Assembly: GCF_048403405.1 (NCBI RefSeq) | Contig: NZ_CP183129.1 | Strand: one strand, 5' to 3' | DNA from: Escherichia coli | Lineage (GTDB): Bacteria; Pseudomonadota; Gammaproteobacteria; Enterobacterales; Enterobacteriaceae | DNA: 64,000 nucleotides | Shown: piece by piece, positions 43,319 to 57,214 of the stretch | How positions within the stretch are numbered: position 1 is the first letter of the stretch | Layout: each line of letters opens with the position of its first letter | Translations under genes and position numbers: made by a program | The notes under the pieces: generated by a model | What the model was told of the DNA's origin: nothing | Database searches by the model: none | What the model saw: the letters and a program-made list of their open reading frames with translations, nothing else

Positions 43319-43574
43319 CGCCATAGTCGCTAAATCTGATGATTAAGCTCACACAATTTCAACGATTTTTTTAATCTCAAAACCATACAGCATCAAAAAA
43401 TTTGTTGCTGTATGCCACTCTTTGACTCCCTTCACATTCGTCATCACACCACCTGCTGAATGCAAAAATTTCGTTGCTGTGCGGCAAACTTTTTTCCTGT
43501 TTTGTGCCGCTTTTCTCCTGAATACTCGTTCTCAGAACAACTGGATCGTTTAAACATCAGACAGGAGATTTACC

Positions 43575-44243
43575 ATGACGCAATCCATTTTTCAGGCTCA
43601 ACCCTTTGAATTACCTTTTGATCCGCGCACAACTGCACTGGTCATGATCGACATGCAGCGTGACTTTGTCGAAGCAGGGGGCTTCGGTGAGGCACTGGGC
43701 AATGATGTTTCACTGGTACGCACGGCTATCGCACCATGTACAGAGGTGCTGGCAGCCGCACGTCAAAAAGGAATTATGGTTATTCATACTCGTGAAGGCC
43801 ATCGTGCAGACTTAAGCGACTGCCCGCCAGCCAAACTGACGCGCGGCGGAAAAACCTTTATTGGTGAACCAGGACCGATGGGACGCATTCTGGTCAGAGG
43901 TGAAGCAGGTCATGACATCATTCCTGAACTGTACCCGGTGGCAGGCGAACCGGTGATTGATAAGCCTGGCAAAGGCGCGTTTTATCAAACCGACTTACAT
44001 CTGATTTTGCAAAACCACGGTATCAAGACGCTGATAGTTTGTGGTGTAACAACCGAAGTTTGCGTAACCACCACCGTGCGCGAAGCAAATGATCGTGGCT
44101 ATGAATGCATTATCCCGGAAGATTGTGTCGGCTCCTATTTCCCGGAATTCCAGAAATACGCCCTCGAGATGATCAAAGCACAAGGTGCCATTTTCGGTTG
44201 GGTTACTGATTCCAAAGCCATTATTGCAGGTCTGGAAGGCTAA
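43575..44243 (+). CDS. isochorismatase-family cysteine amidohydrolase (RutB / biuret hydrolase / N-carbamoylsarcosine amidase-like); first gene of accessory module A
   Basis: 222 aa; SD AGGAG; VMIDMQRDF Asp motif and the C-G-V-T-T-E-V-C-V nucleophile region typical of isochorismatase-like hydrolases; exact enzyme not determinable. Confidence 0.78.
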   Translation: MTQSIFQAQPFELPFDPRTTALVMIDMQRDFVEAGGFGEALGNDVSLVRTAIAPCTEVLAAARQKGIMVIHTREGHRADLSDCPPAKLTRGGKTFIGEPGPMGRILVRGEAGHDIIPELYPVAGEPVIDKPGKGAFYQTDLHLILQNHGIKTLIVCGVTTEVCVTTTVREANDRGYECIIPEDCVGSYFPEFQKYALEMIKAQGAIFGWVTDSKAIIAGLEG

Positions 44244-44248
44244 CGCCG

Positions 44249-45109
44249 ATGGCACAGATTACGCTTTGCGCATCGTCGTTGGGATATCTTTTCCCGCAGA
44301 ATGAAACGCAAGATTTACGTCTGCATAGCGCTTTTAAACATGCGGTAAATCTGTATTCAGAAGCGGGAACATTCATCACTCTGTTGTGTGCGCAAACGTA
44401 TCTGAATCTCCCTGATGCTGCCAGAGTCTGGCTACCTGAATGTTGGGACTGGCGAAGAGAGATTGCCCATTCCGATCCCGTTCAGTTAACCCCAGGCTTA
44501 CTGCAGACACCTCGCTTTTGTGTGGCTCTCGATAACGCAACGCTCTGGCAGCCGTCATTTGTGGGAGGAAGGCTGACACTTGAGGCGTTCCCTTTGGTTT
44601 TCCAGCACTACCCAACGATGGCATCGCAACGGCTTTTATTTTGTCTGGAGCATAACGTTCAAAGCACATTGCACCTGCCGGATAGTCTCACGCACCAGGG
44701 ATTAGCGATTATGGAACATCCAGATGCGCTGGAACGCCAGGTGCCACAACTGATCGGCTTTGGTAAAGGCTTAACGCCCGATGGAGATGACTATTTGTTG
44801 GGCTATCTGGCAGCACTCTGGTTATGGCAACTCCCTGCACCACTTGCCGATCATCAATACCGGTTGCAGCAGGCAATTGATCAACATGCGCACAACACCA
44901 CGGATATCAGTCGTCATTATCTGGAGCGTGCGCTTCAGGGACATTTTTCAGAACCGATTTGCCAGTTACTCGCACAACTGGTTGGGAGCGCATCGGCAAT
45001 GACAATCGCATCCTGTGCAGAACAGGTCATGCAATTTGGCGCAACGTCAGGAGTAGATTGCCTTGCAGGAATGCTGCATGGCTTTCGAACCCTGAACACC
45101 ATGAATTGA
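44249..45109 (+). CDS. DUF2877-like protein (YahE/YlbF-type)
   Basis: 286 aa; 5 nt after the upstream stop; G-rich loop IGFGKGLTPDGDD; family assignment is by size and gene context (recalled family), not by search. Confidence 0.55.
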   Translation: MAQITLCASSLGYLFPQNETQDLRLHSAFKHAVNLYSEAGTFITLLCAQTYLNLPDAARVWLPECWDWRREIAHSDPVQLTPGLLQTPRFCVALDNATLWQPSFVGGRLTLEAFPLVFQHYPTMASQRLLFCLEHNVQSTLHLPDSLTHQGLAIMEHPDALERQVPQLIGFGKGLTPDGDDYLLGYLAALWLWQLPAPLADHQYRLQQAIDQHAHNTTDISRHYLERALQGHFSEPICQLLAQLVGSASAMTIASCAEQVMQFGATSGVDCLAGMLHGFRTLNTMN

Positions 45110-45203
45110 TTTCAACCTTTTCTCCTGTAGCTCATTTATGGCGCTACACGGGGATGCTTTGCCCGAATTTTACTATCGGGCGGAATGAAACAGGCGTAAC
45201 AGC

Positions 45204-46763
45204 ATGAAAGTTAAATATAAAGTTTTCAGTAATCTTTATCAGGACTCAGTTTCTCTGATGCAGATTTCCGCGCAAATCAGCAAGTTGCCCGGTATTCAAC
45301 AGGCCTCGGTCGTCATGGGAACACCCAATAATCTCGAACAATTGCGCGATGCGGGTCTGGGTAACGAAATCAACGCCAGTCCCAATGATTTAGTGATTGC
45401 AGTCATGGGTGAAGAAGATATTTGCAATGAAGCACTGGCACTGGCCCAGCAACGTCTGACCAGCAAACCCGATGATGAAACGGATAGTGGCATTAAAACA
45501 CCGGAAAATGTCAGCCTGGACATGGCACTGGAAGCCGAACCCGAAGCCAACCTGGCACTCATTTCTGTACCGGGAGACTACGCCGCCGCCGAAGCAATTA
45601 AAGCGTTAAACCTCGGAATGAACGTGATGATGTTCAGCGATAACGTCAGTATCGCGCAGGAAAAATCCATCAAAATACTTGCCCGAGAACGTCAGCGCAT
45701 CGTAATGGGACCTGACTGTGGAACCGCCATTGTTAACGGCATTCCGTTAGGCTTCGCTAATGTGGTGAAACGCGGAGCAATTGGTGTTATTGGCGCGTCA
45801 GGCACCGGGCTACAGGAAGTGACTTGCCGAATCGACCAGCTCGGAGCGGGTATTTCTCAGGCGCTGGGAACAGGCGGGCATGATCTCAGTGAAGAGATTG
45901 GTGGAATATCGATGCTCTTCGCTTTAGATGCGCTGGCGCAAGACGATGAAACTCGCGTAATTGTGCTGATTTCAAAACCGCCTTCACCGATCGTTGCCCG
46001 GACTATTCTGGAGCGTGCCGAGGCTTGTGGAAAACCCGTGGTGGTGAATTTCCTCGGTGCGAATCCGCATGATCTGGCACGTCCCAATATCACTGCCGCC
46101 ACCACACTTGCCAGCGCCGCCGACATCGCTGTGGCGTTACTGAATGCTCAGCCACTTCCGGCTGTCGAGACCGAGATTTCCTGCGCCGATCTCACAATGT
46201 TACAAAACGCCTGTCAGCGCCTGCCAGCCCATCGCCAGGCGATACGCGGTGTTTTCGCCGGAGGAACCTTCTGCTACGAAGCGCAACTTATCTGCCAGCA
46301 AAAGGGATTCCGCGCCGCCTCCAATACGCCAGTTGCGAGTAATCGTACTCTGGCAAATATCTGGCAAAGCGAAGATCACACGCTGATCGATATGGGCGAC
46401 GATGATTTCACCCGTGGCAAACCGCATCCAATGATCGACCCGACTCTGCGCAATCAACGTCTGCTCAACGAACTCAACGACTCACACACTGCCGTCGTGT
46501 TATTCGACCTGGTACTTGGTTATGGCGCTTCCGCTACACCTGCCAGCGAATTACTGGACCAACTTTCACACATCGACATGAATAACGCACCGTTGCTGAT
46601 TGCGCACGTTTGCGGAACGGAAGCTGATCCGCAAATACGCAGTCAGCAGATAAGCGCACTACAAAATGCGGGCATCATCATTGCCAGCAGCAATGCACAG
46701 GCGGCGCTATGGGCCAGCGTCGTTGCGCAGACTCAGTTGCAGAAAAAGGGGCTAAACGCATGA
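45204..46763 (+). CDS. FdrA-like protein (NDP-forming acyl-CoA synthetase / succinyl-CoA synthetase alpha-like fold)
   Basis: 519 aa; shares recalled FdrA blocks: QDSVSLM, LALISVPG-YAA, NVMMFSDNV, VMGPDCGT, GVIGASGTG, DMGDDDFTRGKPHPMIDPTLRNQ. Confidence 0.7.
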   Translation: MKVKYKVFSNLYQDSVSLMQISAQISKLPGIQQASVVMGTPNNLEQLRDAGLGNEINASPNDLVIAVMGEEDICNEALALAQQRLTSKPDDETDSGIKTPENVSLDMALEAEPEANLALISVPGDYAAAEAIKALNLGMNVMMFSDNVSIAQEKSIKILARERQRIVMGPDCGTAIVNGIPLGFANVVKRGAIGVIGASGTGLQEVTCRIDQLGAGISQALGTGGHDLSEEIGGISMLFALDALAQDDETRVIVLISKPPSPIVARTILERAEACGKPVVVNFLGANPHDLARPNITAATTLASAADIAVALLNAQPLPAVETEISCADLTMLQNACQRLPAHRQAIRGVFAGGTFCYEAQLICQQKGFRAASNTPVASNRTLANIWQSEDHTLIDMGDDDFTRGKPHPMIDPTLRNQRLLNELNDSHTAVVLFDLVLGYGASATPASELLDQLSHIDMNNAPLLIAHVCGTEADPQIRSQQISALQNAGIIIASSNAQAALWASVVAQTQLQKKGLNA

Positions 46764-48184
46764 ATACCTTATTTAATCAGCCTTTGAAGGTTGTGAACGC
46801 GGGACTACACAGTTTTGCTGACAATATTCAACATGCCGGGGGAAGCGCAATTGCACTCAACTGGCAGCCACCAGCACAAGGCGATATTGACGCTGGATTG
46901 GATCTGGCATCGTTGCTACGTCATCCACTGGTAGAAAATGCCAACCAAATCGCCATGACACGTTATCTCGAAGCACAGCCCGTGCTGGTAGATGTCATGC
47001 TCGCTAAAGAGGCCATTCCAGCAATGGCTGAACAAAAACGTATTTTGCACTCTGGCCCGCCGATTGCCTGGGAAGAGATGTGTGGTCCGGTAAAAGGGGC
47101 GATTATTGGTGCCATGCTGTACGAAGGTTGGGCCACCAGCCAGCAAGACGCTGAAAACCAGATAAACGCAGGCGAAATCGACCTTGCCCCTTGTCATCAT
47201 TATCACGCGGTTGGCCCAATGGCTGGCATCATCAGCCCGTCGATGCCGTTATGGGTGGTAGAAAACAAAACCAACGGCCACCGTACTTTTAGCAATTTCA
47301 ATGAAGGTCTGGGTAAGGTTCTCCGTTTTGGCGCCAATAACGATGAAGTTCTCAATCGTCTGGCCTGGATGCGCGATGAACTGGCGCCGGCAATGAAAGC
47401 AGCAATCGCACAACACGGCGAGCTGGAACTCAAGCCATTAATGGCGCAGGCGCTGCATATGGGGGATGAAGTTCATAACCGCAATGCTGCCGCTACCGGT
47501 TTGCTGATTAAGCGCCTGCTCCCGGCATTGCTGGCCTGCTCTCTTCCACAGGAACATATCCAGCGCGTCGTGGCATTTATCACCGGTAACGATCACTTCT
47601 TCCTCAATCTGTCGATGGCTGCCTGTAAAGCAATGATGGATGCCGCCGCCAATGTACCGTTCAGTTCAATGGTTACGGTGATGGCGCGTAACGGGGTGAA
47701 TTTTGGTATTCGGCTTTCCGGTACTGGCGATCGCTGGTTCCAGGCTCCTGCCAATGCCGTTGAAGGTCTGTTCTTCCCCGGATTTGGCGTTGACGACGCT
47801 GCTGCTGACCTGGGTGATAGCGCAATTACTGAAACCGCAGGTGTGGGTGGCTTCGCGATGGCGTCGTCTCCGGCGATCGTCAAATTTGTGGGAGGCACCC
47901 CTGCCGATGCCACCAATAACAGCCGTCGGATGCAAGCCATCACCCTCGGCGGTAACCCCGCATTTACACTTCCAGCCCTCAATTTTGCCCCCACCGCAGC
48001 AGGGATTGATGCGCGTAAAGTGACCGATCGCGGCATTTTACCGGTCATCAATACGGGTATCGCCCACAAACAAGCGGGGGTCGGGCAAATTGGTGCCGGG
48101 ATCACCACTGCGCCGATGGCCTGTTTTGTCGCCGCTGTACGTGCACTGGCGGAGATCGTCGCAAAGGAGAACCATCATGGTTAA
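46760..48184 (+). CDS. DUF1116-like protein (YlbE/YahG-type)
   Basis: 474 aa from MNTLFNQPLKVVNAGLHSF; ATG overlaps the upstream TGA (ATGA coupling); size and position match the YahG/YlbE partner of FdrA-like proteins (recalled). Confidence 0.6.
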   Translation: MNTLFNQPLKVVNAGLHSFADNIQHAGGSAIALNWQPPAQGDIDAGLDLASLLRHPLVENANQIAMTRYLEAQPVLVDVMLAKEAIPAMAEQKRILHSGPPIAWEEMCGPVKGAIIGAMLYEGWATSQQDAENQINAGEIDLAPCHHYHAVGPMAGIISPSMPLWVVENKTNGHRTFSNFNEGLGKVLRFGANNDEVLNRLAWMRDELAPAMKAAIAQHGELELKPLMAQALHMGDEVHNRNAAATGLLIKRLLPALLACSLPQEHIQRVVAFITGNDHFFLNLSMAACKAMMDAAANVPFSSMVTVMARNGVNFGIRLSGTGDRWFQAPANAVEGLFFPGFGVDDAAADLGDSAITETAGVGGFAMASSPAIVKFVGGTPADATNNSRRMQAITLGGNPAFTLPALNFAPTAAGIDARKVTDRGILPVINTGIAHKQAGVGQIGAGITTAPMACFVAAVRALAEIVAKENHHG

Positions 48185-49133
48185 GCCACTGGCTGTTGTC
48201 GCGGTTGGCGGCAATGCGCTCATTCAGGACGAGCAACGCAATAGTATTCCCGATCAATATGTTGCAGTGATGGAAAGCGTGCAGCATATCGTTGATATGG
48301 TTGAAGCCGGATGGGACCTGGTGCTAACCCACGGTAATGGCCCGCAGGTGGGCTTTATTCTGCGCCGCTCTGAACTCGCCAGTAACGAAGTTTCTCCGGT
48401 TCCACTTGATTACGCCGTGGGTGATACACAAGGTGCAATTGGCTACATGTTCCAGAAAGCGCTGCATTACGAATTGGCTCGCCGTGGCATAAACAAACCG
48501 GTAATTGCCCTGGTGACACAAACGCGAGTCAGCCCACATGACGATGCTTTCGCCAACCCCAGTAAACCGATTGGCGCGTTTCTCGATGAAGCAACGGCCC
48601 AACAACGCCAACAACAACTCGGCTGGACGCTGATGGAGGACGCCGGGCGTGGTTGGCGGCGTACAGTTCCCTCTCCTGCACCACTGGAAATTATTGAGCA
48701 CGACACCATCGCTCACCTGGTGCGCCAGGGATATCTGGTTATTGCCTGCGGCGGCGGCGGTATTCCGGTGGTGCGAGACGGGCAACAACTGAAAGGTGTA
48801 GAAGCCGTGATCGATAAAGATCTGGCCTCCGCGCTGCTCGCCAGTCAGTTAGGCGCAGATCTGCTGGTGATCCCCACCGGTGTAGAAAAAGTGGCGATTA
48901 ACTTTGGTACACCACAACAACAGTGGCTCGACGCTATCAGCGTTGCCGAAGCGCAAACGCTGTTGCGGGAAGGTCAGTTTGGTGTCGGCAGTATGCAACC
49001 CAAAGTGGAAGCCATTGTTGATTTCATCAATGCCAGCCAGCAACAAGGCAAACAGGCCAGCGGCCTGATTACTTCACCGCAAACCATAAAAGCAGCCCTG
49101 GCGCATCAGAGCGGTACATGGATAACCCTTTAA
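48177..49133 (+). CDS. carbamate kinase
   Basis: 318 aa from MVKPLAVVAVGGNALIQDEQ; SD AAGGAGA; carbamate/amino-acid kinase motifs VVAVGGNAL and IACGGGGIPV; start overlaps the upstream gene by 8 nt. Confidence 0.85.
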   Translation: MVKPLAVVAVGGNALIQDEQRNSIPDQYVAVMESVQHIVDMVEAGWDLVLTHGNGPQVGFILRRSELASNEVSPVPLDYAVGDTQGAIGYMFQKALHYELARRGINKPVIALVTQTRVSPHDDAFANPSKPIGAFLDEATAQQRQQQLGWTLMEDAGRGWRRTVPSPAPLEIIEHDTIAHLVRQGYLVIACGGGGIPVVRDGQQLKGVEAVIDKDLASALLASQLGADLLVIPTGVEKVAINFGTPQQQWLDAISVAEAQTLLREGQFGVGSMQPKVEAIVDFINASQQQGKQASGLITSPQTIKAALAHQSGTWITL

Positions 49134-49149
49134 ATCTCTGGAGAACACA

Positions 49150-49539
49150 ATGACTACAACGCTTTTAGCCGTTAACGGAACGCTGATGCGCGGCCTGGAA
49201 CTCAACCCAAATATGAAAAAAGCGGGCGGTATTTTTGTCCGTGAAGACCGAACTGACGCCCATTACCGGTTGTGGAGTATTAACGATCGCCATCCGGGAA
49301 TGATTCGCGTGAATGAAGGAGGAACACACGTCGACGTAGAAATTTGGCAATTACCGCTGGCCAGTTTTGCCGCTCTGTTAATGAGCGAACCCGCTGGGCT
49401 GGCAATTGGCAAAATCAAACTTGCCGATGGTAGCGAAGTGCTGGGCGTACTGGCAGAAAACTGGCTGACCGAAGGCCAACGGGAAATTACAGAACTGGGC
49501 GGCTGGCGCAAATACACCGGGCATTTTCATACTGTGTAA
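49150..49539 (+). CDS. small GGCT/AIG2-like protein (gamma-glutamyl cyclotransferase-like fold), function unknown
   Basis: 129 aa; N-terminal LLAVNGTLMRG resembles the YGSL/GTLxxG motif of AIG2/GGCT-like proteins; weak, motif-based. Confidence 0.45.
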   Translation: MTTTLLAVNGTLMRGLELNPNMKKAGGIFVREDRTDAHYRLWSINDRHPGMIRVNEGGTHVDVEIWQLPLASFAALLMSEPAGLAIGKIKLADGSEVLGVLAENWLTEGQREITELGGWRKYTGHFHTV

Positions 49540-49564
49540 CGCGCATTTATAAAGGGAACATACT

Positions 49565-50788
49565 ATGCGTAAAAAAGAAGAGAATCTGAATACGGCATCA
49601 GGATTGCGTATTGCCATGATTTTGCTGGGTATTGCCGTCACACCTGTGCTGTTGTCATCCTCAAGCCTCGGCAATCAACTTTCCAGCGGCAGTTTAATTA
49701 GCGTCGTATTGTTAGGCGGCGTCATTCTGACCTTACTTTCAGCCATCACCATTAGCGTGGGAGAAAAAGCCCGCCTGCCAACGTATGGCATTGTGAAATA
49801 TTCGTTTGGCGAAAAAGGGGCCATCGCCATTAACATTTTGATGGCGATAAGTCTGTTCGGCTGGATTGCCGTTACCGCCAATATGTTTGGTCATTCGGTA
49901 CATGACTTACTGGCTCAACATGGACTGGAAGTTCCACTGGCACTGTTAGTGGCGGCTGGCTGTGTCATTTTTGTCGCCTCTACGGCATTTGGCTTTGCCG
50001 TTCTGGGAAAAATTGCCCAGGTTGCCGTGCCGGTTATCGCGCTGGTGCTGTGTTACATCCTCTATGTGGCAACCCATACCGAAGTGGCAGTACCAGCGGC
50101 GATTGTGGAGATGAATACAGGTGTCGCCGTTTCCACCGTTGTTGGCACCATTATTGTGCTGGTTGCCACACTGCCTGATTTCGGTAGTTTTGTGCATAAC
50201 CGCAAACATGCACTGATTGCCGCAGGCGTGACGTTTCTGGTTGCCTACCCTCTGCTCTACTGGGCGGGTGCAACGCCGAGCGCCATTAGTGGTCAGGGAT
50301 CTTTACTGGGTGCGATGGCGGTATTCGGTGCGGTTCTGCCTGCGGCGCTGTTGTTGATTTTCGCCTGCGTCACCGGTAACGCGGGCAATATGTTCCAGGG
50401 CACGCTGGTGGTTTCCACACTGCTTACCCGCTTTCCCAAATGGCAGATTACCGTGGCGCTGGGTATCCTTTCCGCCATCGTAGGCAGTATGGATATTATG
50501 GCGTGGTTTATTCCGTTTCTGCTGTTCCTGGGTATCGCCACGCCACCCGTTGCCGGAATTTATATCGCTGACTTTTTCCTTTATCGCCGTAATGGCTATC
50601 AAGAGTCAGTGTTAGCCCAGGAGTCACAGATTAAAGTGCTGACATTCGCAGCATGGATCATAGGCGCAGCGGTTGGCTTTATGACCGTAAAAGGCTTATT
50701 CACCCTGACGACGATCCCTTCGGTAGACTCGATTCTGGTGGCATGTATCGCGTATGCGATTCTCAGTCGGGCAAGTCAACACCGCTAA
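49565..50788 (+). CDS. NCS1-family permease (CodB-like nucleobase/cytosine-type transporter)
   Basis: 407 aa, multi-TM; C-terminal block IPPVAGIYIADFFLYRRNGY closely resembles the recalled CodB IPPVGGVIIADYLMNRRRYE. Confidence 0.75.
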   Translation: MRKKEENLNTASGLRIAMILLGIAVTPVLLSSSSLGNQLSSGSLISVVLLGGVILTLLSAITISVGEKARLPTYGIVKYSFGEKGAIAINILMAISLFGWIAVTANMFGHSVHDLLAQHGLEVPLALLVAAGCVIFVASTAFGFAVLGKIAQVAVPVIALVLCYILYVATHTEVAVPAAIVEMNTGVAVSTVVGTIIVLVATLPDFGSFVHNRKHALIAAGVTFLVAYPLLYWAGATPSAISGQGSLLGAMAVFGAVLPAALLLIFACVTGNAGNMFQGTLVVSTLLTRFPKWQITVALGILSAIVGSMDIMAWFIPFLLFLGIATPPVAGIYIADFFLYRRNGYQESVLAQESQIKVLTFAAWIIGAAVGFMTVKGLFTLTTIPSVDSILVACIAYAILSRASQHR

Positions 50789-50865
50789 TTCCTGGGTATA
50801 CTCAGGCAATGATTACGGCTGAATCTGGAGAGATTCAGCCACTTTACCACTGACCAGGGAGCCTT

Positions 50866-51771
50866 ATGTTCATCTCAGACGAAACGCTTCGTGTTATTCA
50901 TCTGGTCGCCAGACACCAGAGCATTACCATCGCAGCCGAGCAGTTAAATAAAGTCCCTTCCGCCATCAGTTACACCATCAAGAAAGCGGAAGAGAGCCTG
51001 GGCGTTGAACTGTTCATTCGTAAGGGACGCTATATTGAATTATCGCCAGCGGGAAGTTACTTCATCGAACATAGCAAAACTATTCTTGGCGACCTGGAAG
51101 CATTAAAGCGCAACACAGTGCTGATTCACGATGGTATTGAGCGTGAACTGACAATTGCGGTAAACAATATTATTCCTGGTAATTTGCTGGTGGCATTTAT
51201 TCGAGATTTTGAACGGCAATTCACATCAACAACACTGACGGTAGATCTTGAGGTATACAACGGCTGCTGGGATGCGCTGTACAGTAAGCGTGCTGATCTG
51301 GTCTACGGTGCTCCTCATGCAGTACCAAGTAGTGAAGGCATCATTAGCGAACCGGTCGGACAAATGGAATGGGATTTTGTCGTCAGCCCACTCCACCCAC
51401 TGGCAGCGAAGCGGCATCCATTAGAAAACAGTGAATTGCGTCATTATCCAGCGGTTTGTATCCGCGATACCTCCGTTAACTTCCCCCCGATGCAAGCCTG
51501 GTTGTTGGAAGGACAAAAACCCATTTTTGTTCCTGACTTCGCTACGGCAATCGCCTTAATAGAACAAAACGTCGGTATTGGTTATATTCCACATCATCTG
51601 GCATTGCCGTTATTGAACAGCGGTAAATTGCTTAAAAAGCCAATGCGCGAACATAAACACGCCACCAAGTTATTTCTTGCCGCTCGTTCCGATGGTATGG
51701 GCAAAGCCTGTCAGTGGTGCATAGAATATTTAAGAAACCCGCAATTAATGACACGATTTGTATTTAATTGA
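50866..51771 (+). CDS. LysR-family transcriptional regulator
   Basis: 301 aa; N-terminal wHTH (SITIAAEQLNKVPSAISYTIKKAEESLGVELFIRKGR) and LysR substrate-binding domain; SD GGGAG. Confidence 0.85.
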   Translation: MFISDETLRVIHLVARHQSITIAAEQLNKVPSAISYTIKKAEESLGVELFIRKGRYIELSPAGSYFIEHSKTILGDLEALKRNTVLIHDGIERELTIAVNNIIPGNLLVAFIRDFERQFTSTTLTVDLEVYNGCWDALYSKRADLVYGAPHAVPSSEGIISEPVGQMEWDFVVSPLHPLAAKRHPLENSELRHYPAVCIRDTSVNFPPMQAWLLEGQKPIFVPDFATAIALIEQNVGIGYIPHHLALPLLNSGKLLKKPMREHKHATKLFLAARSDGMGKACQWCIEYLRNPQLMTRFVFN

Positions 51772-51970
51772 CAATACAATGATAAAAATATAAGTCTTGC
51801 TTTAATTAGAGCGCCCGTTTAAATTATTTTTGTGCAGTTGACGTAACTCATGAAAATTAACCGGTCTGTTAATCATTACGTTCACTGCACACCTTCATTT
51901 TTTCACACCTATCCACGCCTGAAAACTATGTTATAATCAGCACTTTCTGTCAGAATGAAATTTACTAATT

Positions 51971-52816
51971 ATGAATAACATAACCGTAAAAAGTCTGATT
52001 CAAAGCAATTACCCTACACTGCATCAGGCGGAAAAAAAGGTCGCCGACTATATTCTTAGCCACGCACATGAAGTCGTGAACTATAGTGTCACTGAACTAT
52101 CAGAAAAAAGCCATGCCAGTGAAGCGACTATCGTGCGCACCTGTAAGAAATTAGGTTATCAGGGTTATTACCATTTAAAAATTGCATTAGCAAAAGAAGT
52201 CATTAATCCTGACAATAGCTATCCTGATAATACCGATTTTACCGATATAACGTCGCTGGCCACATTTTTATTAAAAAAACAGGCCGAAGATTTAATACAA
52301 TCAACGCAATTTTTTAATGCCGAAGTGCTTGAGTCCATTCTCAAACTACTTGCTAATTGCGATACTATTTTCTTTTTTGCTGCCGGAAATTCAAACCCTC
52401 TGGCCGTTTATGGTGCTTATAAATTCAGCCAACTCGGATTAAAAACCGTTGTTCACGTCAGCCCGGAAATGCAAATTAATGCGGCATATTCTATGGGGAA
52501 ACGCGACCTGGCGATTGGTATTTCTAACTCTGGCAGCACCAACTTAATGGTCGATATCTTTAAAGTGGTGAAAGAGCGCGGTGCCAAATCCGTTTGTATC
52601 ACTAACTATATTAAATCTCCGTTATCAAAACTCTCCACCCATCAACTCAATACCGCGGTCAGCGATAAAATCTTCTTTGAAGCCTTCGACTCCACTCGCG
52701 TTCCGGCAATGGGCGTTATTGATATGCTGGTGCTGTTGTTTATGTATAAAAACAAGGCGCATTACGAGAAATACCGCACCCGTGAAGAGTTTCTCGGCTC
52801 CCGTTTCAAGGGGTAA
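51971..52816 (+). CDS. RpiR/MurR-family transcriptional regulator (HTH plus SIS domain)
   Basis: 281 aa MNNITVKSLIQSNYPTLHQAEKKVADYILSH...; HTH_6 then SIS sugar-phosphate-binding domain. Confidence 0.85.
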   Translation: MNNITVKSLIQSNYPTLHQAEKKVADYILSHAHEVVNYSVTELSEKSHASEATIVRTCKKLGYQGYYHLKIALAKEVINPDNSYPDNTDFTDITSLATFLLKKQAEDLIQSTQFFNAEVLESILKLLANCDTIFFFAAGNSNPLAVYGAYKFSQLGLKTVVHVSPEMQINAAYSMGKRDLAIGISNSGSTNLMVDIFKVVKERGAKSVCITNYIKSPLSKLSTHQLNTAVSDKIFFEAFDSTRVPAMGVIDMLVLLFMYKNKAHYEKYRTREEFLGSRFKG

Positions 52817-52838
52817 AAGGTCATCCTTTCACCCCTTG
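52807..52838. terminator. bidirectional stem-loop between convergent rpiR-like and transketolase genes
   Basis: CAAGGGGTAAAAGG-tcat-CCTTTCACCCCTTG (14-bp stem, one mismatch); the left arm includes the rpiR stop codon. Confidence 0.55.
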
Positions 52839-52845
52839 TGCAGGT

Positions 52846-54843
52846 TTAGCTATTCAGTAGCTCACGCGCCTGCGCCAGGACATTTTCCGGCGTAAAACCA
52901 AAGTGTTTGAACAACACATTCGCCGGAGCAGACTCACCAAAGCTCGTCATCCCAATGACTTTACCATCCAGACCGACGTAGCGTTCCCAGAATCCGGCGA
53001 TGCTGGCTTCTACCGCCAGACGTTTGCGTACAGCTTTTGGCAATACCGATTCTTTGTACGCCGCATCCTGATTATCGAAACGCTCGGTACACGGCATGGA
53101 AACTACGCGAACTTTACGCCCTTCTTCCGTTAACGCTTTTGCGGCGCTGACCACTAACTCAATCTCTGAACCCGCAGAAATGAGGATCATCTCAGGCTGA
53201 CCGTCACAATCACTCAGTACATAACCACCACGCGCAATCTCTGCCAACTGTGCAGCGGTGCGCGGCTGTTGCGCCAGCGGTTGGCGCGTTAATACCAACG
53301 ACGTTGGGCCATCTTTGCGCTCAATCGCCTGTTGCCAGGCCACCGCCACTTCCACCTGATCGCAACCGCGCCAGGTTTCCATATTCGGCGTCAGACGCAG
53401 CGACGCCAGTTGCTCAACGGGCTGATGTGTCGGGCCGTCTTCGCCCAGGCCGATGGTATCGTGGGTATAAACAAACACCGAGCGGATCTTCATCAGCGCC
53501 GCCATGCGCAGTGCATTACGCGCATATTCCATAAACATCAGGAAAGTACCGCCGTAAGGGATAAACCCACCATGCAGCGCAAGACCGTTCATGATGGCCG
53601 ACATACCAAATTCACGCACGCCATAGGAGATGTAATTCCCCGCCGGATTTTCCCCGGTGAAATCAACCGATTTCTGATGGCGAGTCAGGTTAGAGGGCGA
53701 CAAGTCCGCCGAGCCGCCCATCAGTTCCGGCAGCATATCAGCGAAGTGATTGAGGCATTTCTGGCTGACCTGACGGGTTGCCAGCGCCGCCGGATGGGAT
53801 TGCAGATCGTGCACATATTTCTGCATATTCTCGGCCCAGCCAGCAGGCAAATCACCCTTCATGCGACGAGTAAACTCCGCCGCCAGTTCCGGCCACTGCT
53901 TCGCGTAGTCAGCAAACAGTGCATCCCATTCCTGTTGAACCTGCGCGCCTTTCTCGGTCGCATCCCATTCGGCATAAATTTCACCAGGAATTTCGAAAGG
54001 GGCATACGGCCATTGCAGACGTTCACGCACCAGCGCCACTTCATCTGCACCCAGCGCCGAGCCGTGGCAATCGTGGCTGTTGGCTTTATTTGGTGAACCA
54101 AAACCGATAATCGTTTTGCAGCACAGCAGACTGGGCTTATCCGTGACGCTTTTCGCTTCACGCACCGCAGCATCTACCGCTTCTGGATCGTGACCATCAA
54201 CGCCTTCAATGACATGCCAGCCGTAGGCACGAAAACGGGCAGCCGTATCTTCAGCGAACCAGCCTTCTACGTGACCATCGATCGAAATACCGTTATCGTC
54301 CCAGATAGCAATCAGATTGCCGAGCTTCAGCGTTCCTGCAAGACCACAGGCCTCGTGGGAGATCCCTTCCATCAGGCAGCCATCACCCAAAAATAGCCAT
54401 GTGTGATGATCAACAATATTAAAGCCCGGTTTGTTAAATTCTGCCGCCAGCGCCTTCTCCGCAATCGCCATCCCCACCGCATTAGCTACGCCCTGCCCCA
54501 ACGGGCCGGTGGTGGTTTCAACACCCGGCGTATAACCATATTCTGGATGACCCGGCGTGCGGGAGTGGAGCTGACGAAAGTCGCGAATATCATCCATCGA
54601 CAGGTCGTAGCCTGTAAGATGCAGCAAAGCGTAAATCAACATGGAGCCGTGACCGTTCGACTGAACATAGCGGTCGCGGTTAAACCACTGCGGATTTTTT
54701 GGGTTATGACGCAGGTGACGACGCCAGACCACTTCGGCAATATCCGCCATCCCCATCGGCGCGCCCGGATGACCGGAGTTCGCTTTCTGGATCGCATCAA
54801 CACTTAACATTCGGATGGCATTAGCCAGTAATTGTGAATTCAT
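52846..54843 (-). CDS. transketolase (third paralogue, distinct from TktA/TktB)
   Basis: 665 aa [44 protein letters not shown]...; TPP-binding [10 protein letters not shown]; diverged from recalled TktA/TktB (identity not computed). Confidence 0.93.
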
Positions 54844-54893
54844 ACTTCAGCTCTCTCTGTCTGGCGGGCTGAAACCAGCCCGCTAATCTCGAA

Positions 54894-56402
54894 TTAGTTA
54901 GCACAGGCCACTGTCATTTCTGTCGGGCGCGGTCTGCTCATTACGGTTTTAATTTCGTCGCGCAGGATTTGCGATTTGCCGCCAAATATCACCTGTACAC
55001 CGCCATCACCCAGTTTCACTAACCCCGCAGCCCCCAACTCCTTCAGCCGTTTTTCATTCACTTTCTTATCGTCTACCAGCGCCAGCCTCAGGCGTGTTGC
55101 GCAGGCATCCACATCTTCGATATTGTCGAAACCACCTACTGCTTCGATGATTTGGTATGGACGTTCTTCGCGCGTTAATGTGGTTGCAACGGCAATCTCT
55201 TCATCCTCACGTCCCGGTGTTTTCAGATTCAACTTGCGGATCAGTACCCGAAATACGGTGTAGTAAATCGCTGCATAGCCCGCGCCTGCCAGGAACACCA
55301 GATACCACGGCGTGCGGTTTGGCATAACGCCATTCAGTACGAAATCAATAAGACCGCCAGCAAAAGGATGACCAATGTGCACATTCAGGATGTTCATCAG
55401 CACAAATGAAGTGGCATATAAGAAGATGTGAATGATGTAGAGAACCGGAGCTGCAAACAAAAATGCATATTCCAGCGGCTCCGTAATCCCGGTAACAAAT
55501 GTGGTCAGCGCACCGGAGAGTAAAAGGCCTTTAATCAGCGCCTTACGTTCCGGTTTTGCTTCCTGATACATCGCCAACGCGGCGGCAGGTAACGCAAACA
55601 TCATGATCGGGAAACGACCTGTCATAAACAGCCCCGCCGTCAACGGAACACCGTCGCGCAATTGGGCAAAGAACACCGGAATATCGCCCGTCACCAGTTG
55701 CCCGGATTTGGTCATGTAGTCGCCAAAGTTGTAATAAAACGGCACGTTCCAGATATGATGCAGGCCAAAAGGAATCAGCGAACGTTCGCCAACGGCGTAA
55801 ATAAAGGCCGCGAAGTTCGCGTTATGCCCACTGGTCACCAGCGTTGAAAGCGACGCCAGACCTTTTTGTACCGGTATCCACAGCCACGGCAATAAATAGC
55901 CGACAATAATTGCCGCCACCGCCGTAATAATCGGTACAAAGCGTTTTCCACCGAAGAAACCAAGAAACTGAGGCAATTCAATATTGTGGAAGCGGGTATA
56001 GAGCAGATAAACAAAGATGGCGACAATCAAACCGCCAAACACTCCCGTTTGTAACGTCGGTACCCCGAGGATCATCGCATAGTCACCGTTACTGGCTGCA
56101 ACGGACTCCGCGGTAATGCCAAGTTGCGTTCCCATCGTGGCATTCATGATCATGTAACTGATAATCGCTGAAAGTGATGAAGAACCATCACCTGTCAGGC
56201 CAATCACAATACCGACACAAAACAGCAAAGGAAGGTTGGCGAAAATCAGGCCGCCGCAATTCGCCAGCAGCTCAATGTTAAATGAAATCCCGATGGCTAA
56301 AATCAAACCCGCCGCCGGAAGAATGGCGATTGGTAACATCAGAGCAGAAGAAAATTTCTGCAACTTCTTGAAGTTAAACAAGGATGTTATTTTTTTGCTC
56401 AT
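54894..56402 (-). CDS. PTS glucose-family EIICB component
   Basis: 502 aa; EIIC motif GITEPLEYAF; C-terminal EIIB phospho-cysteine motif DACATRLRLALVD; SD CAGGAGAA; no EIIA domain or gene nearby. Confidence 0.9.
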   Translation of the reverse strand: MSKKITSLFNFKKLQKFSSALMLPIAILPAAGLILAIGISFNIELLANCGGLIFANLPLLFCVGIVIGLTGDGSSSLSAIISYMIMNATMGTQLGITAESVAASNGDYAMILGVPTLQTGVFGGLIVAIFVYLLYTRFHNIELPQFLGFFGGKRFVPIITAVAAIIVGYLLPWLWIPVQKGLASLSTLVTSGHNANFAAFIYAVGERSLIPFGLHHIWNVPFYYNFGDYMTKSGQLVTGDIPVFFAQLRDGVPLTAGLFMTGRFPIMMFALPAAALAMYQEAKPERKALIKGLLLSGALTTFVTGITEPLEYAFLFAAPVLYIIHIFLYATSFVLMNILNVHIGHPFAGGLIDFVLNGVMPNRTPWYLVFLAGAGYAAIYYTVFRVLIRKLNLKTPGREDEEIAVATTLTREERPYQIIEAVGGFDNIEDVDACATRLRLALVDDKKVNEKRLKELGAAGLVKLGDGGVQVIFGGKSQILRDEIKTVMSRPRPTEMTVACAN

Positions 56403-56443
56403 TTTTATTCTCCTGTAGGGTATCGAGCAAATAACGGCGACGA

Positions 56444-57001
56444 CTATTCCAGATTGGCGTGGCGCTTAAACAGTTCACTTTCCGGCGCACCACTTTCAGC
56501 AGCCATCTTCATCACTAATGCATCGGCAATCACCAGCAAAGCTTGCTCATACAACGACGCCATCGGCTGTGCCGAGCGGAAAACAGAATCTTTTTGATTT
56601 TTGGAAGGGGCATTGATTTGCACGATGACGTCGACAAACTCGGTGATAGTGGCGTGTCGATTCGTGGTTAACACCGCCACAGCGCCGCCAAGCTGACGTG
56701 CTTTTTTCGCCAGTGCCACCAGTTGTGCTGTCTCACCGGAAGCGGAAGAAACGATAAACAGATCGCCAGGCCCAAAGTTCGGCGTAATGGTTTCCGTCAG
56801 AAAGTAAACCTCTTTTCCCATATGCATCAGGCGCATGGTGAAGGCTTTCATGGAAAAGCCGGCGCGTCCCAGGCCATAGCAGAAAACGCGCTGGCTTTGC
56901 TGAATAGCGTCGATCAATTTGGTGCAGTCATCCTCACGGATAGAGTCCTTAACGAAGGTTAATTCATTGATGATCTCAGTGATGTACAGCTTTGCGTCCA
57001 T
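56444..57001 (-). CDS. SIS-domain sugar-phosphate isomerase (6-phospho-3-hexuloisomerase-like)
   Basis: 185 aa from MDAKLYITEIINELTFVKD (SD AGGTG upstream; the alternative start at 57013 adds 4 aa); single SIS domain with GLGRAG and SSASGET motifs. Confidence 0.72.
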   Translation of the reverse strand: MDAKLYITEIINELTFVKDSIREDDCTKLIDAIQQSQRVFCYGLGRAGFSMKAFTMRLMHMGKEVYFLTETITPNFGPGDLFIVSSASGETAQLVALAKKARQLGGAVAVLTTNRHATITEFVDVIVQINAPSKNQKDSVFRSAQPMASLYEQALLVIADALVMKMAAESGAPESELFKRHANLE

Positions 57002-57008
57002 TTCACAC

Positions 57009-57214
57009 CTCATGAAATAATTTTCTCAAACACAAAATCTCATGAAATTTTATTTCATTCCAATGCATCAGTATGAAATGTGAAGCTAGTCACAAGAAAG
57101 ATCATAGGTTGATATGTTTTTCATTAAAAAACATATAGATATCAAGTAATTTTTAATATGTGATGGAGAGGCAGATAGAAAAAATGGCGGAAATGACGAA
57201 ATTTATTTCATGAG
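57009..57214 (-). promoter_or_regulatory. control region of the SIS-PTS-transketolase operon: consensus CRP site (TGTGAAGCTAGTCACA, 57078-57093) and repeated CTCATGAAAT motifs (57009-57018, 57039-57048; inverted copy 57205-57214)
   Basis: Motifs read directly in a ~290-bp AT-rich spacer upstream of the first operon gene; a possible -10 TAAAAT on the minus strand at 57052-57047. Confidence 0.55.

Follow-up and report, generated by a model that had tools for sequence, protein, structure and literature searches.

Among the described systems closest to the one considered here are the triuret pathway of Herbaspirillum sp. BH-1, which employs TrtA, TrtB, BiuH and AtzF (PMC7948467), and AllFGH which, together with a carbamate kinase (AllK), has been shown experimentally to convert oxalurate and inorganic phosphate to carbamoyl phosphate and oxamate (PMC11326118). 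In the 64,000-nucleotide stretch of the Escherichia coli chromosome which we analyzed (assembly GCF_048403405.1, contig NZ_CP183129.1; hereafter the window), relatives of enzymes from both systems are specified by a single cassette (43575–50788) located on an accessory island which is flanked by ysgA and metE. The last two genes of this cassette, on which an earlier note had focused, encode a 129-residue protein related to the C-terminal domain of allophanate hydrolase (AH) and a 407-residue permease. Based upon sequence signatures and gene context we consider the chances about even that the cassette is a horizontally mobile operon by which acyclic ureides of the triuret type are catabolised, and which would make ATP by way of carbamoyl phosphate. 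It consists of known protein families in an undescribed combination, and is as such a new variant of ureide catabolism; a literature search found no paper proposing a single trtA–allFGHK pathway or assigning c4763, the 129-residue protein, to it.

The evidence was drawn from RefSeq annotation, NCBIfam and Pfam hidden Markov models, sequence matches in the PDB, Foldseek, AlphaFold2 (AF2), tblastn and hhalign. The genes of the cassette are as follows:

43575–44243, + strand: isochorismatase-family cysteine hydrolase with the TrtA signature (PDB matches, signature residues)
44249–45109, + strand: AllH-like protein, DUF2877 / Pfam AllH (RefSeq; orthologues with PF11392 AllH)
45204–46763, + strand: AllF/FdrA-like subunit, succinyl-CoA-synthetase-alpha-like (NCBIfam NF004760, 497 bits against a cut-off of 433)
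46760–48184, + strand: AllG-like subunit, DUF1116 / Pfam AllG (RefSeq and orthologues)
48177–49133, + strand: carbamate kinase (NCBIfam TIGR00746, 365.8 bits against a cut-off of 358)
49150–49539, + strand: c4763, a stand-alone AH_C protein of "type A" with the motif AVNGTLMRG (Pfam, PDB, alignment)
49565–50788, + strand: NCS1 permease of a divergent CodB-like clade (Pfam PF02133, residue comparison)

Like the Herbaspirillum pathway, the cassette begins with an enzyme bearing the TrtA signature, and carboxybiuret is the intermediate to be expected. It lacks BiuH, the AtzF amidase and TrtB, and has an AllH/F/G-like enzyme, a kinase and a stand-alone AH_C protein. The presence of an AllH/F/G-like enzyme and a kinase in place of BiuH and AtzF predicts a phosphorolytic, ATP-yielding cleavage and not a hydrolytic one. 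A similar co-location of IHL-family hydrolases with AllFGHK-type genes, sometimes accompanied by an NCS1 permease, has been described in comammox Nitrospira and ammonia-oxidising archaea, where trtA/biuH and allFGHK (with codB in some of the archaea) were read by the authors as belonging to two pathways, for biuret and for oxalurate (PMC12625717). Those clusters retain full-length AtzF and BiuH, whereas the cassette described here is pared down to a TrtA-type hydrolase, AH_C, the AllH/F/G-like enzyme and the kinase.

The TrtA-type hydrolase and the AllH/F/G-like set

The first gene product finds its best matches in the PDB among the structures of Herbaspirillum TrtA [6XIX, 6XJ4 and 6XJE, 270 bits], followed by BiuH [6AZO and others, 234–237 bits]. 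The catalytic triad, the contact residues and six second-shell positions which discriminate between TrtA and BiuH were defined in the paper on TrtA (PMC7948467). In the window protein the D-K-C triad and the contacts D24, F29, E72, K132 and Q202 are all conserved, and each of the six discriminating positions (F35, N41, A134, E160, Y187 and I205) is of the TrtA type, as they are in its orthologues. Relatives of c4763 were sought in a scan of one genome per species, and all counts of gene context given below derive from the best 80 loci among the 451 genomes with a relative. The full FNAEYI signature together with an intact triad is present in 67 of the 68 loci which carry a hydrolase. Copies of the BiuH type (YYSDTV) were confined to verrucomicrobial-type loci without AllFG and the kinase, where they are the second hydrolase.

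The identification of the window hydrolase as a bona fide BiuH can be rejected, its score against NCBIfam NF050097 being 279.8 bits with a cut-off of 370; its second-best NCBIfam match is RutB [111.9 bits]. The TrtA signature residues point to an acyclic urea oligomer of the triuret/biuret family as the substrate and not to a nucleobase, hydantoin or allantoin, the candidates which had been put forward in the earlier note on account of the permease.

The three families to which the subunits AllF, AllG and AllH belong are encoded together with a carbamate kinase in the order H-F-G-kinase. With AllFGH and AllK (PMC11326118) the cassette thus has in common the same three families plus a carbamate kinase in one operon; it differs in lying outside the allantoin regulon and in the addition of the hydrolase, AH_C and the permease. 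The AllH-like protein is 26% identical to both YahE and YlbF, the AllF-like protein 42% identical to YahF and 41% to FdrA, and the AllG-like protein 46% identical to YahG and 49% to YlbE, while the kinase is 48% identical to YahI and 39% to YbcF/AllK. Since the AllH/F/G-like proteins show 26–49% identity to both YlbF/FdrA/YlbE and YahE/F/G, they constitute a third paralogous set. Orthology with AllFGH was rejected upon these values (41%, 49% and 26% to AllF, AllG and AllH), as was orthology with YahEFG, the distance to YahF, YahG and YahE being similar. The fdrA-ylbE-ylbF-ybcF operon and the yahE–yahJ cluster of strain K-12 contain no AH_C gene and no permease gene, and the suspicion that the locus is a pathway variant distinct from the fdrA cluster is borne out.

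Among the AllFGH-type sets compared, an activity has been demonstrated only for AllFGH itself. By analogy, carboxybiuret, allophanate and biuret would appear to be close analogues of oxalurate. In the K-12 region yahD–yahJ (locus L013) the genes yahE-yahF-yahG-yahI follow the same H-F-G-kinase order, flanked by the ankyrin protein YahD and the amidohydrolase YahJ where the cassette has a TrtA-type hydrolase, AH_C and a permease.

c4763 and the permease

Both open reading frames (ORFs) described in the earlier note are real, as judged from their coordinates and the RefSeq annotation. The ORF at 49150–49539 has an ATG start with GGAGA 7 nt upstream, lies 16 nt behind its upstream neighbour on the same strand, and is annotated "allophanate hydrolase-related protein" [WP_000214032.1]; that at 49565–50788, with a Shine-Dalgarno-like sequence upstream and a spacing of 25 nt, is annotated "cytosine permease" [WP_001227356.1]. 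The shorter ORF is not a chance one, because relatives are encoded in the 451 species-representative genomes.

The 129-residue protein is c4763 of uropathogenic E. coli (UPEC) strain CFT073, the structure of which is already solved. It is identical at 127 of its 129 residues to PDB 5C5Z ("c4763, a uropathogenic E. coli-specific protein"), being the same protein with no structural difference. Kim et al. reportedly crystallised c4763 in 2015, the crystal form being a dimer; their report is said to have dealt with the structure only, with no activity, and to have suggested a role in urea utilization, which is at odds with the gene context. Because the structure was solved in that year, the structure prediction proposed in the earlier note was unneeded for the fold. 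It was nevertheless run, along with the Foldseek comparison, and the AF2 model (mean predicted local distance difference test score, pLDDT, of 79) matched 5C5Z first, followed by the AH C domain of K. lactis, PH0828, GGCT, GGACT and ChaC2. The template-modelling (TM) score was 0.79 against the AH C domains 4ISS and 5I8I, with a root-mean-square deviation of 2.7–2.8; the matches to proteins of the GGCT fold (2RBH, 3CRY, 3JUC, 1VKB and 6KY1) had probabilities of 0.98–1.00 and TM scores of 0.46–0.61. The GGCT/AIG2-like fold, which had been surmised from the motif LLAVNGTLMRG (residues 5–15), is therefore correct.

The precise family is that of the stand-alone allophanate-hydrolase C-terminal domain, of GGCT-like fold. 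Pfam AH_C [PF21986, 8.2e-42] covers residues 5–123 and nearly the whole model (positions 2–122/123), and the match to GGACT [PF06094, 0.0025, 18.8 bits] is marginal. An hhalign comparison with human GGACT was too weak (probability 1.8%) to locate the catalytic Glu, E82 of GGACT being placed opposite M78 and the invariant E80 lying two residues off. A gamma-glutamyl substrate is unlikely, since the family is AH_C and the GGACT match marginal; of the earlier suggestion that this is a cyclotransferase or lyase acting upon a gamma-glutamyl- or carbamoyl-amino compound, it is the carbamoyl-amino part which comes close.

A complete allophanate hydrolase (EC 3.5.1.54) was rejected: the NCBIfam AH models gave 103–106 bits against cut-offs of 487–511, the protein has 129 residues and no amidase domain, and tblastn with the AH amidase domain as query detected no amidase-signature domain among the 80 related loci. 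A relationship to TrtB was likewise rejected, TrtB belonging to the AtzH/HpxZ family; no TrtB homolog is present in the cassette. The likeness to the AH C domain (K. lactis 4ISS, Granulibacter 4GYR and AtzF) extends over the full length of AH_C and its core residues, but the window protein stands alone in an amidase-free cassette, is only about 27% identical, and carries NGTLMR and not VGAHL.

We compared 20 domains of type A, that is, stand-alone domains or fusions to partners other than amidases, with 10 from full-length allophanate hydrolases. T35, Y39, E64, E103, W119, R120 and Y122 are common to the two groups, as are the elements G10 and E64 of the GGCT-fold cavity. The N-terminal motif switches from A-V-V-G-A-H-L in the hydrolases to A-V-N-G-T-L-M-R in type A, where D46, E80, G83 and V100 replace a variable residue, V, P and F, respectively. 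Nine of the ten AH-fused domains have the His of GAH, and its place is taken by Leu in all 20 of type A. Among 20 stand-alone homologs from several orders, which are 63–87% identical, 49 of the 129 columns are invariant. Many of these are polar (N9, R14, R31, E32, D36, Y39, R40, D46, H48, E64, E80, K88, E103, R120 and Y122), a pattern which fits an enzyme or a specific interface.

Within the representative library, fusions join the type A domain to carbamate kinase (P0123; also locus L006), to a hydrolase of the BiuH type (P0132 and P0137) or, in P0197, to BiuH together with a degenerate TrtA-like domain. The contig with the kinase fusion carries hydrolase-AllF-AllG and a urea-transporter-family gene, and some other type A genes adjoin AtzG/AtzE-like or other amidases. 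The AH_C partners are alike in that all of them produce or consume a compound which is N-carboxylated (carbamate-type). Other fusions join type A domains to a multi-pass membrane region with an HExxH-like motif (P0163 and P0159), a flavodoxin-like domain (P0140), a ChrR-type cupin (P0128) or a second AH_C copy in tandem (P0136), and suggest that AH_C has roles beyond ureide catabolism.

The permease is, as had been proposed, a member of the NCS1 family, Pfam Transp_cyt_pur [PF02133, 3.6e-14] matching it over its full length (residues 10–399). It is 26–27% identical to CodB of E. coli (b0336) and of P. vulgaris (7QOA), with which it shares the family and, by implication, the LeuT fold. In CodB the side chains of Gln105, Trp108 and Phe204 contact cytosine (PMC9379551). 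Of these only Trp108 is kept: the positions equivalent to Q105, F204 and F33 are occupied by L, I and V, respectively. Further changes are R216 to S, N275 to A, T279 to G, N282 to G and Y285 to F, so that the conserved Arg216–Tyr285 pair has become Ser and Phe. These binding-site residues are identical in four genera, and the members of the clade are 63–75% identical to one another. A canonical cytosine permease was rejected upon the loss of the Q105 and F204 equivalents and an NCBIfam CodB score of 145.7 bits, the cut-off being 326. We predict that this member of a divergent CodB-like clade is the dedicated importer of the pathway substrate. A precedent for a substrate other than a nucleobase is the NCS1 member which transports the biguanide metformin.

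The place of the NCS1 permease beside AH_C is taken by an unrelated, conserved membrane protein of about 530–543 residues in the Phytobacter/Kosakonia group and in TrtA-BiuH-AH_C loci of Verrucomicrobia, and by a urea-transporter-family gene in one metagenomic locus. The former, with an N-terminus of the form ...LWV.GD.NAFFG..TN..., is encoded as follows:

L075, 10398–11996: 530–543-residue membrane protein
L074, 7225–8817: 530–543-residue membrane protein
L093, 7984–9615: 530–543-residue membrane protein

It had no match in Pfam, NCBIfam or the PDB, and may represent an undescribed family of ureide transporters.

Distribution of the cassette and its surroundings

An 8.3-kb segment (43500–51800) is present in 1559 of 5426 complete E. 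coli genomes (29%). In a plasmid collection the whole cassette was found on 82 plasmids, all predicted to be conjugative, of which 78 are from Escherichia and four from Klebsiella, and among the hosts are poultry, pigs and humans (isolates from urine or blood); the E. coli genome collection holds 129 places where the cassette lies on a plasmid. The plasmid copies are about 94–95% identical, and therefore represent an allele distinct from the chromosomal one.

The gene order is the same in Escherichia, Caballeronia, Photobacterium and Dyella. The core hydrolase-(AllH)-AllF-AllG-kinase-AH_C is found in about 62 of the 80 loci, spanning Enterobacterales, Burkholderiales, Neisseriales, Xanthomonadales, Vibrionales, Aeromonadales and others, and an NCS1 gene follows directly after AH_C in about 55. 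Type A AH_C almost always adjoins a TrtA-type hydrolase. The verrucomicrobial loci combine a TrtA-type hydrolase with a true BiuH [411–417 bits] and AH_C, and lack AllFG and carbamate kinase. A LysR gene adjoins the cassette in most loci, lying upstream of it in Vibrionales.

Some loci call for separate comment. The assembly of "Chryseobacterium sp. 18061" carries a cassette of the Enterobacterales type and is likely contaminated, since its identity values match the ones for Citrobacter sp. 18056, which stems from the same study (loci L026 and L028). Two metagenome-assembled genomes labelled as different phyla, Trueperaceae and Gemmatimonadota (L094/L095), share some 11 kb at 99–100% protein identity around an orphan AH_C gene, whose neighbours encode a gamma-glutamyltransferase-like protein and an M20 deacylase; faulty binning or a very recent transfer would seem to account for this. 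The neighbours of the distant stand-alone AH_C genes in Firmicutes-like (L010–L012) and cyanobacterial (L088–L091) loci were uninformative.

Around the cassette in the window three further features were noted:

43384–43414, no strand: inverted repeat CATACAGCATCAAA / TTTGTTGCTGTATG, with 14-nt arms, 93% complementary, and a 3-nt spacer
50817–50840, no strand: perfect 10-bp hairpin GGCTGAATCT-ggag-AGATTCAGCC, without a T tract (repeat search)
50866–51771, + strand: LysR-family regulator, PunR/AllS-like (NCBIfam, under the PunR and AllS cut-offs)

The inverted repeat, some 160 nt upstream of the first cassette gene, is a candidate operator for the LysR regulator. An A/T-rich repeat at 43360–43407 overlaps it, and the two are possible binding sites of a regulator. 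The hairpin, with its 4-nt loop, lies between the stop codon of the permease gene and the start of the LysR gene and is not a canonical terminator. Scans for promoters (6 against 8.8 in shuffled sequences) and terminators (9 against 10.9) revealed no enrichment.

A second module of the island (51971–57013) begins with an RpiR regulator (+ strand), followed by genes on the − strand for a transketolase, a glucose-type IIBC component of the phosphotransferase system (PTS) and a 6-phospho-3-hexuloisomerase, and ends at metE. Between the cassette and this module, at about 51000–52500, the G+C content falls to 38–42%. Counterparts of the second-module genes, c4756–c4759 of CFT073, were listed as UPEC-associated in a comparison published in 2010.

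Proposed pathway and its alternatives

In the pathway which we propose, the NCS1 permease would import the substrate, for which triuret is the best candidate, and the TrtA-type hydrolase would deamidate triuret to 1-carboxybiuret and ammonia. In a third step c4763 would handle the unstable N-carboxylated intermediate, most likely by decarboxylation, either of carboxybiuret to biuret or of allophanate to urea. In the fourth the AllH/F/G-like enzyme would cleave the carbamoyl-urea bond with phosphate to yield carbamoyl phosphate, from which, with ADP, carbamate kinase would finally produce ATP, ammonia and carbon dioxide. The analysis establishes who the genes are, the structure and fold of c4763, the signature residues, the conservation of synteny and the domain fusions; the substrate, the order of the third and fourth steps and any catalytic activity of c4763 are the parts which we infer.

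The third and fourth steps might be arranged in several ways. c4763 might make biuret from carboxybiuret, and the AllH/F/G-like enzyme then phosphorolyse biuret to carbamoyl phosphate and urea; or carboxybiuret might itself be phosphorolysed to carbamoyl phosphate and allophanate, the latter being decarboxylated by c4763. The alternation of BiuH with AllFG-kinase as partners of TrtA and AH_C fits these two schemes equally. A further arrangement would have two rounds of phosphorolysis, with a minor or scaffolding role for c4763. Under each of these arrangements ATP would then be made by carbamate kinase. Left to themselves, carboxybiuret and allophanate break down to biuret and urea, dead-end products for organisms without BiuH or urease (PMC6219798), and the half-life of carboxybiuret is about 20 min. 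This decay to dead ends would explain the selection of a dedicated handler.

Several observations weigh against such a pathway. Identity of the hydrolase to TrtA is only 58%, as against 52% to BiuH, and its specificity might be a related one yet not the same. In gut or urine, triuret is naturally of low and poorly known abundance. If urea is the end product, half of the nitrogen would be lost to urease-negative E. coli, that is, most E. coli. TrtB, the carboxybiuret decarboxylase already known, is of a family other than that of c4763. The GAH His of the C domain of K. lactis AH (His492) was reportedly implicated by Fan et al. in 2013 in the decarboxylation of N-carboxycarbamate; because an invariant Leu takes its place in type A, c4763 may use a different chemistry or be non-catalytic. 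Finally, the 14-kDa piece at the C terminus of AtzF is not required for amidase activity, and it alters the oligomeric state (PMC3944691).

It is these last two points which also speak for c4763 being a non-catalytic partner or scaffold, joining the hydrolase, the AllH/F/G-like enzyme and the kinase and channelling unstable intermediates between them. The fusions of AH_C to three different partners would fit such an adaptor, as would the reportedly dimeric crystal form; the invariant polar residues, from N9 to Y122, are nevertheless more than an interface usually needs, and both subfamilies retain the cavity elements G10 and E64. We regard a purely scaffolding role as unlikely, if the foremost of the alternatives. 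It is highly improbable that the cassette serves urea utilization, with c4763 replacing allophanate hydrolase downstream of urea carboxylation, in spite of the homology of c4763 to the AH C domain, the life of UPEC in urea-rich urine, the urea-transporter-family gene of the one metagenomic variant and a passage of PMC7558591 in which c4763 is cited in that sense. A urea carboxylase and an amidase-signature domain are both missing from the cassette, no amidase was detected in the 80 related loci either, and the first gene encodes a TrtA-type hydrolase, an enzyme without any part in urea carboxylation.

A pathway for ureides derived from pyrimidines or nucleobases, in which cytosine, uracil or a ring-opened pyrimidine is imported, a RutB-like hydrolase releases carbamate and the AllFGH-like enzyme acts upon oxalurate or a similar compound, is in keeping with the RefSeq name of the permease, with RutB as the second-best NCBIfam match of the hydrolase, with the action of AllFGH upon oxalurate and with the biuret-plus-oxalurate reading of the nitrifier clusters. 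Against it weigh the permease, which falls far short of the CodB cut-off and has lost the Q105 and F204 equivalents; the hydrolase, whose score for BiuH/TrtA is 2.5 times that for RutB and which is of the TrtA type at every discriminating site; and the AllH/F/G-like proteins, which are not AllFGH orthologs. Moreover, E. coli already possesses the all operon for oxalurate. We therefore deem this pathway rather improbable, and return to triuret-type catabolism as our preferred reading.

More tentative, and in our estimation somewhat on the doubtful side, is the full set of novelties which that reading would entail: a novel ATP-yielding route for ureides of the triuret or biuret type in E. coli (notably on conjugative plasmids and in UPEC-type strains) and in many other Proteobacteria, a third AllFGH-type enzyme which phosphorolyses a carbamoyl-urea (biuret, carboxybiuret or allophanate) to carbamoyl phosphate, a new N-carboxy-ureide decarboxylase in the GGCT-fold protein c4763 without homology to TrtB or AtzH, and, in the NCS1 permease, the first transporter to be assigned to triuret or biuret. 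Human urine has been found to contain triuret, which is formed when urate is oxidised. A link of the cassette with uropathogenic strains is plausible though unproven.

Should the proposal be true, a function would be provided for c4763, an orphan which was labelled "UPEC-specific" and has been structurally solved since 2015. Carbamoyltransferases of the AllFGH type would gain a second substrate class, which may aid the assignment of the still-unassigned YahEFG of K-12, and the trtA/biuH–allFGHK clusters of nitrifiers would constitute one pathway, not two. The present clade of permeases would also serve as a warning against annotation as "cytosine permease." Lastly, there would be a route of substrate-level phosphorylation for urea oligomers, compounds which occur as fertiliser impurities and as products of urate oxidation in human urine.

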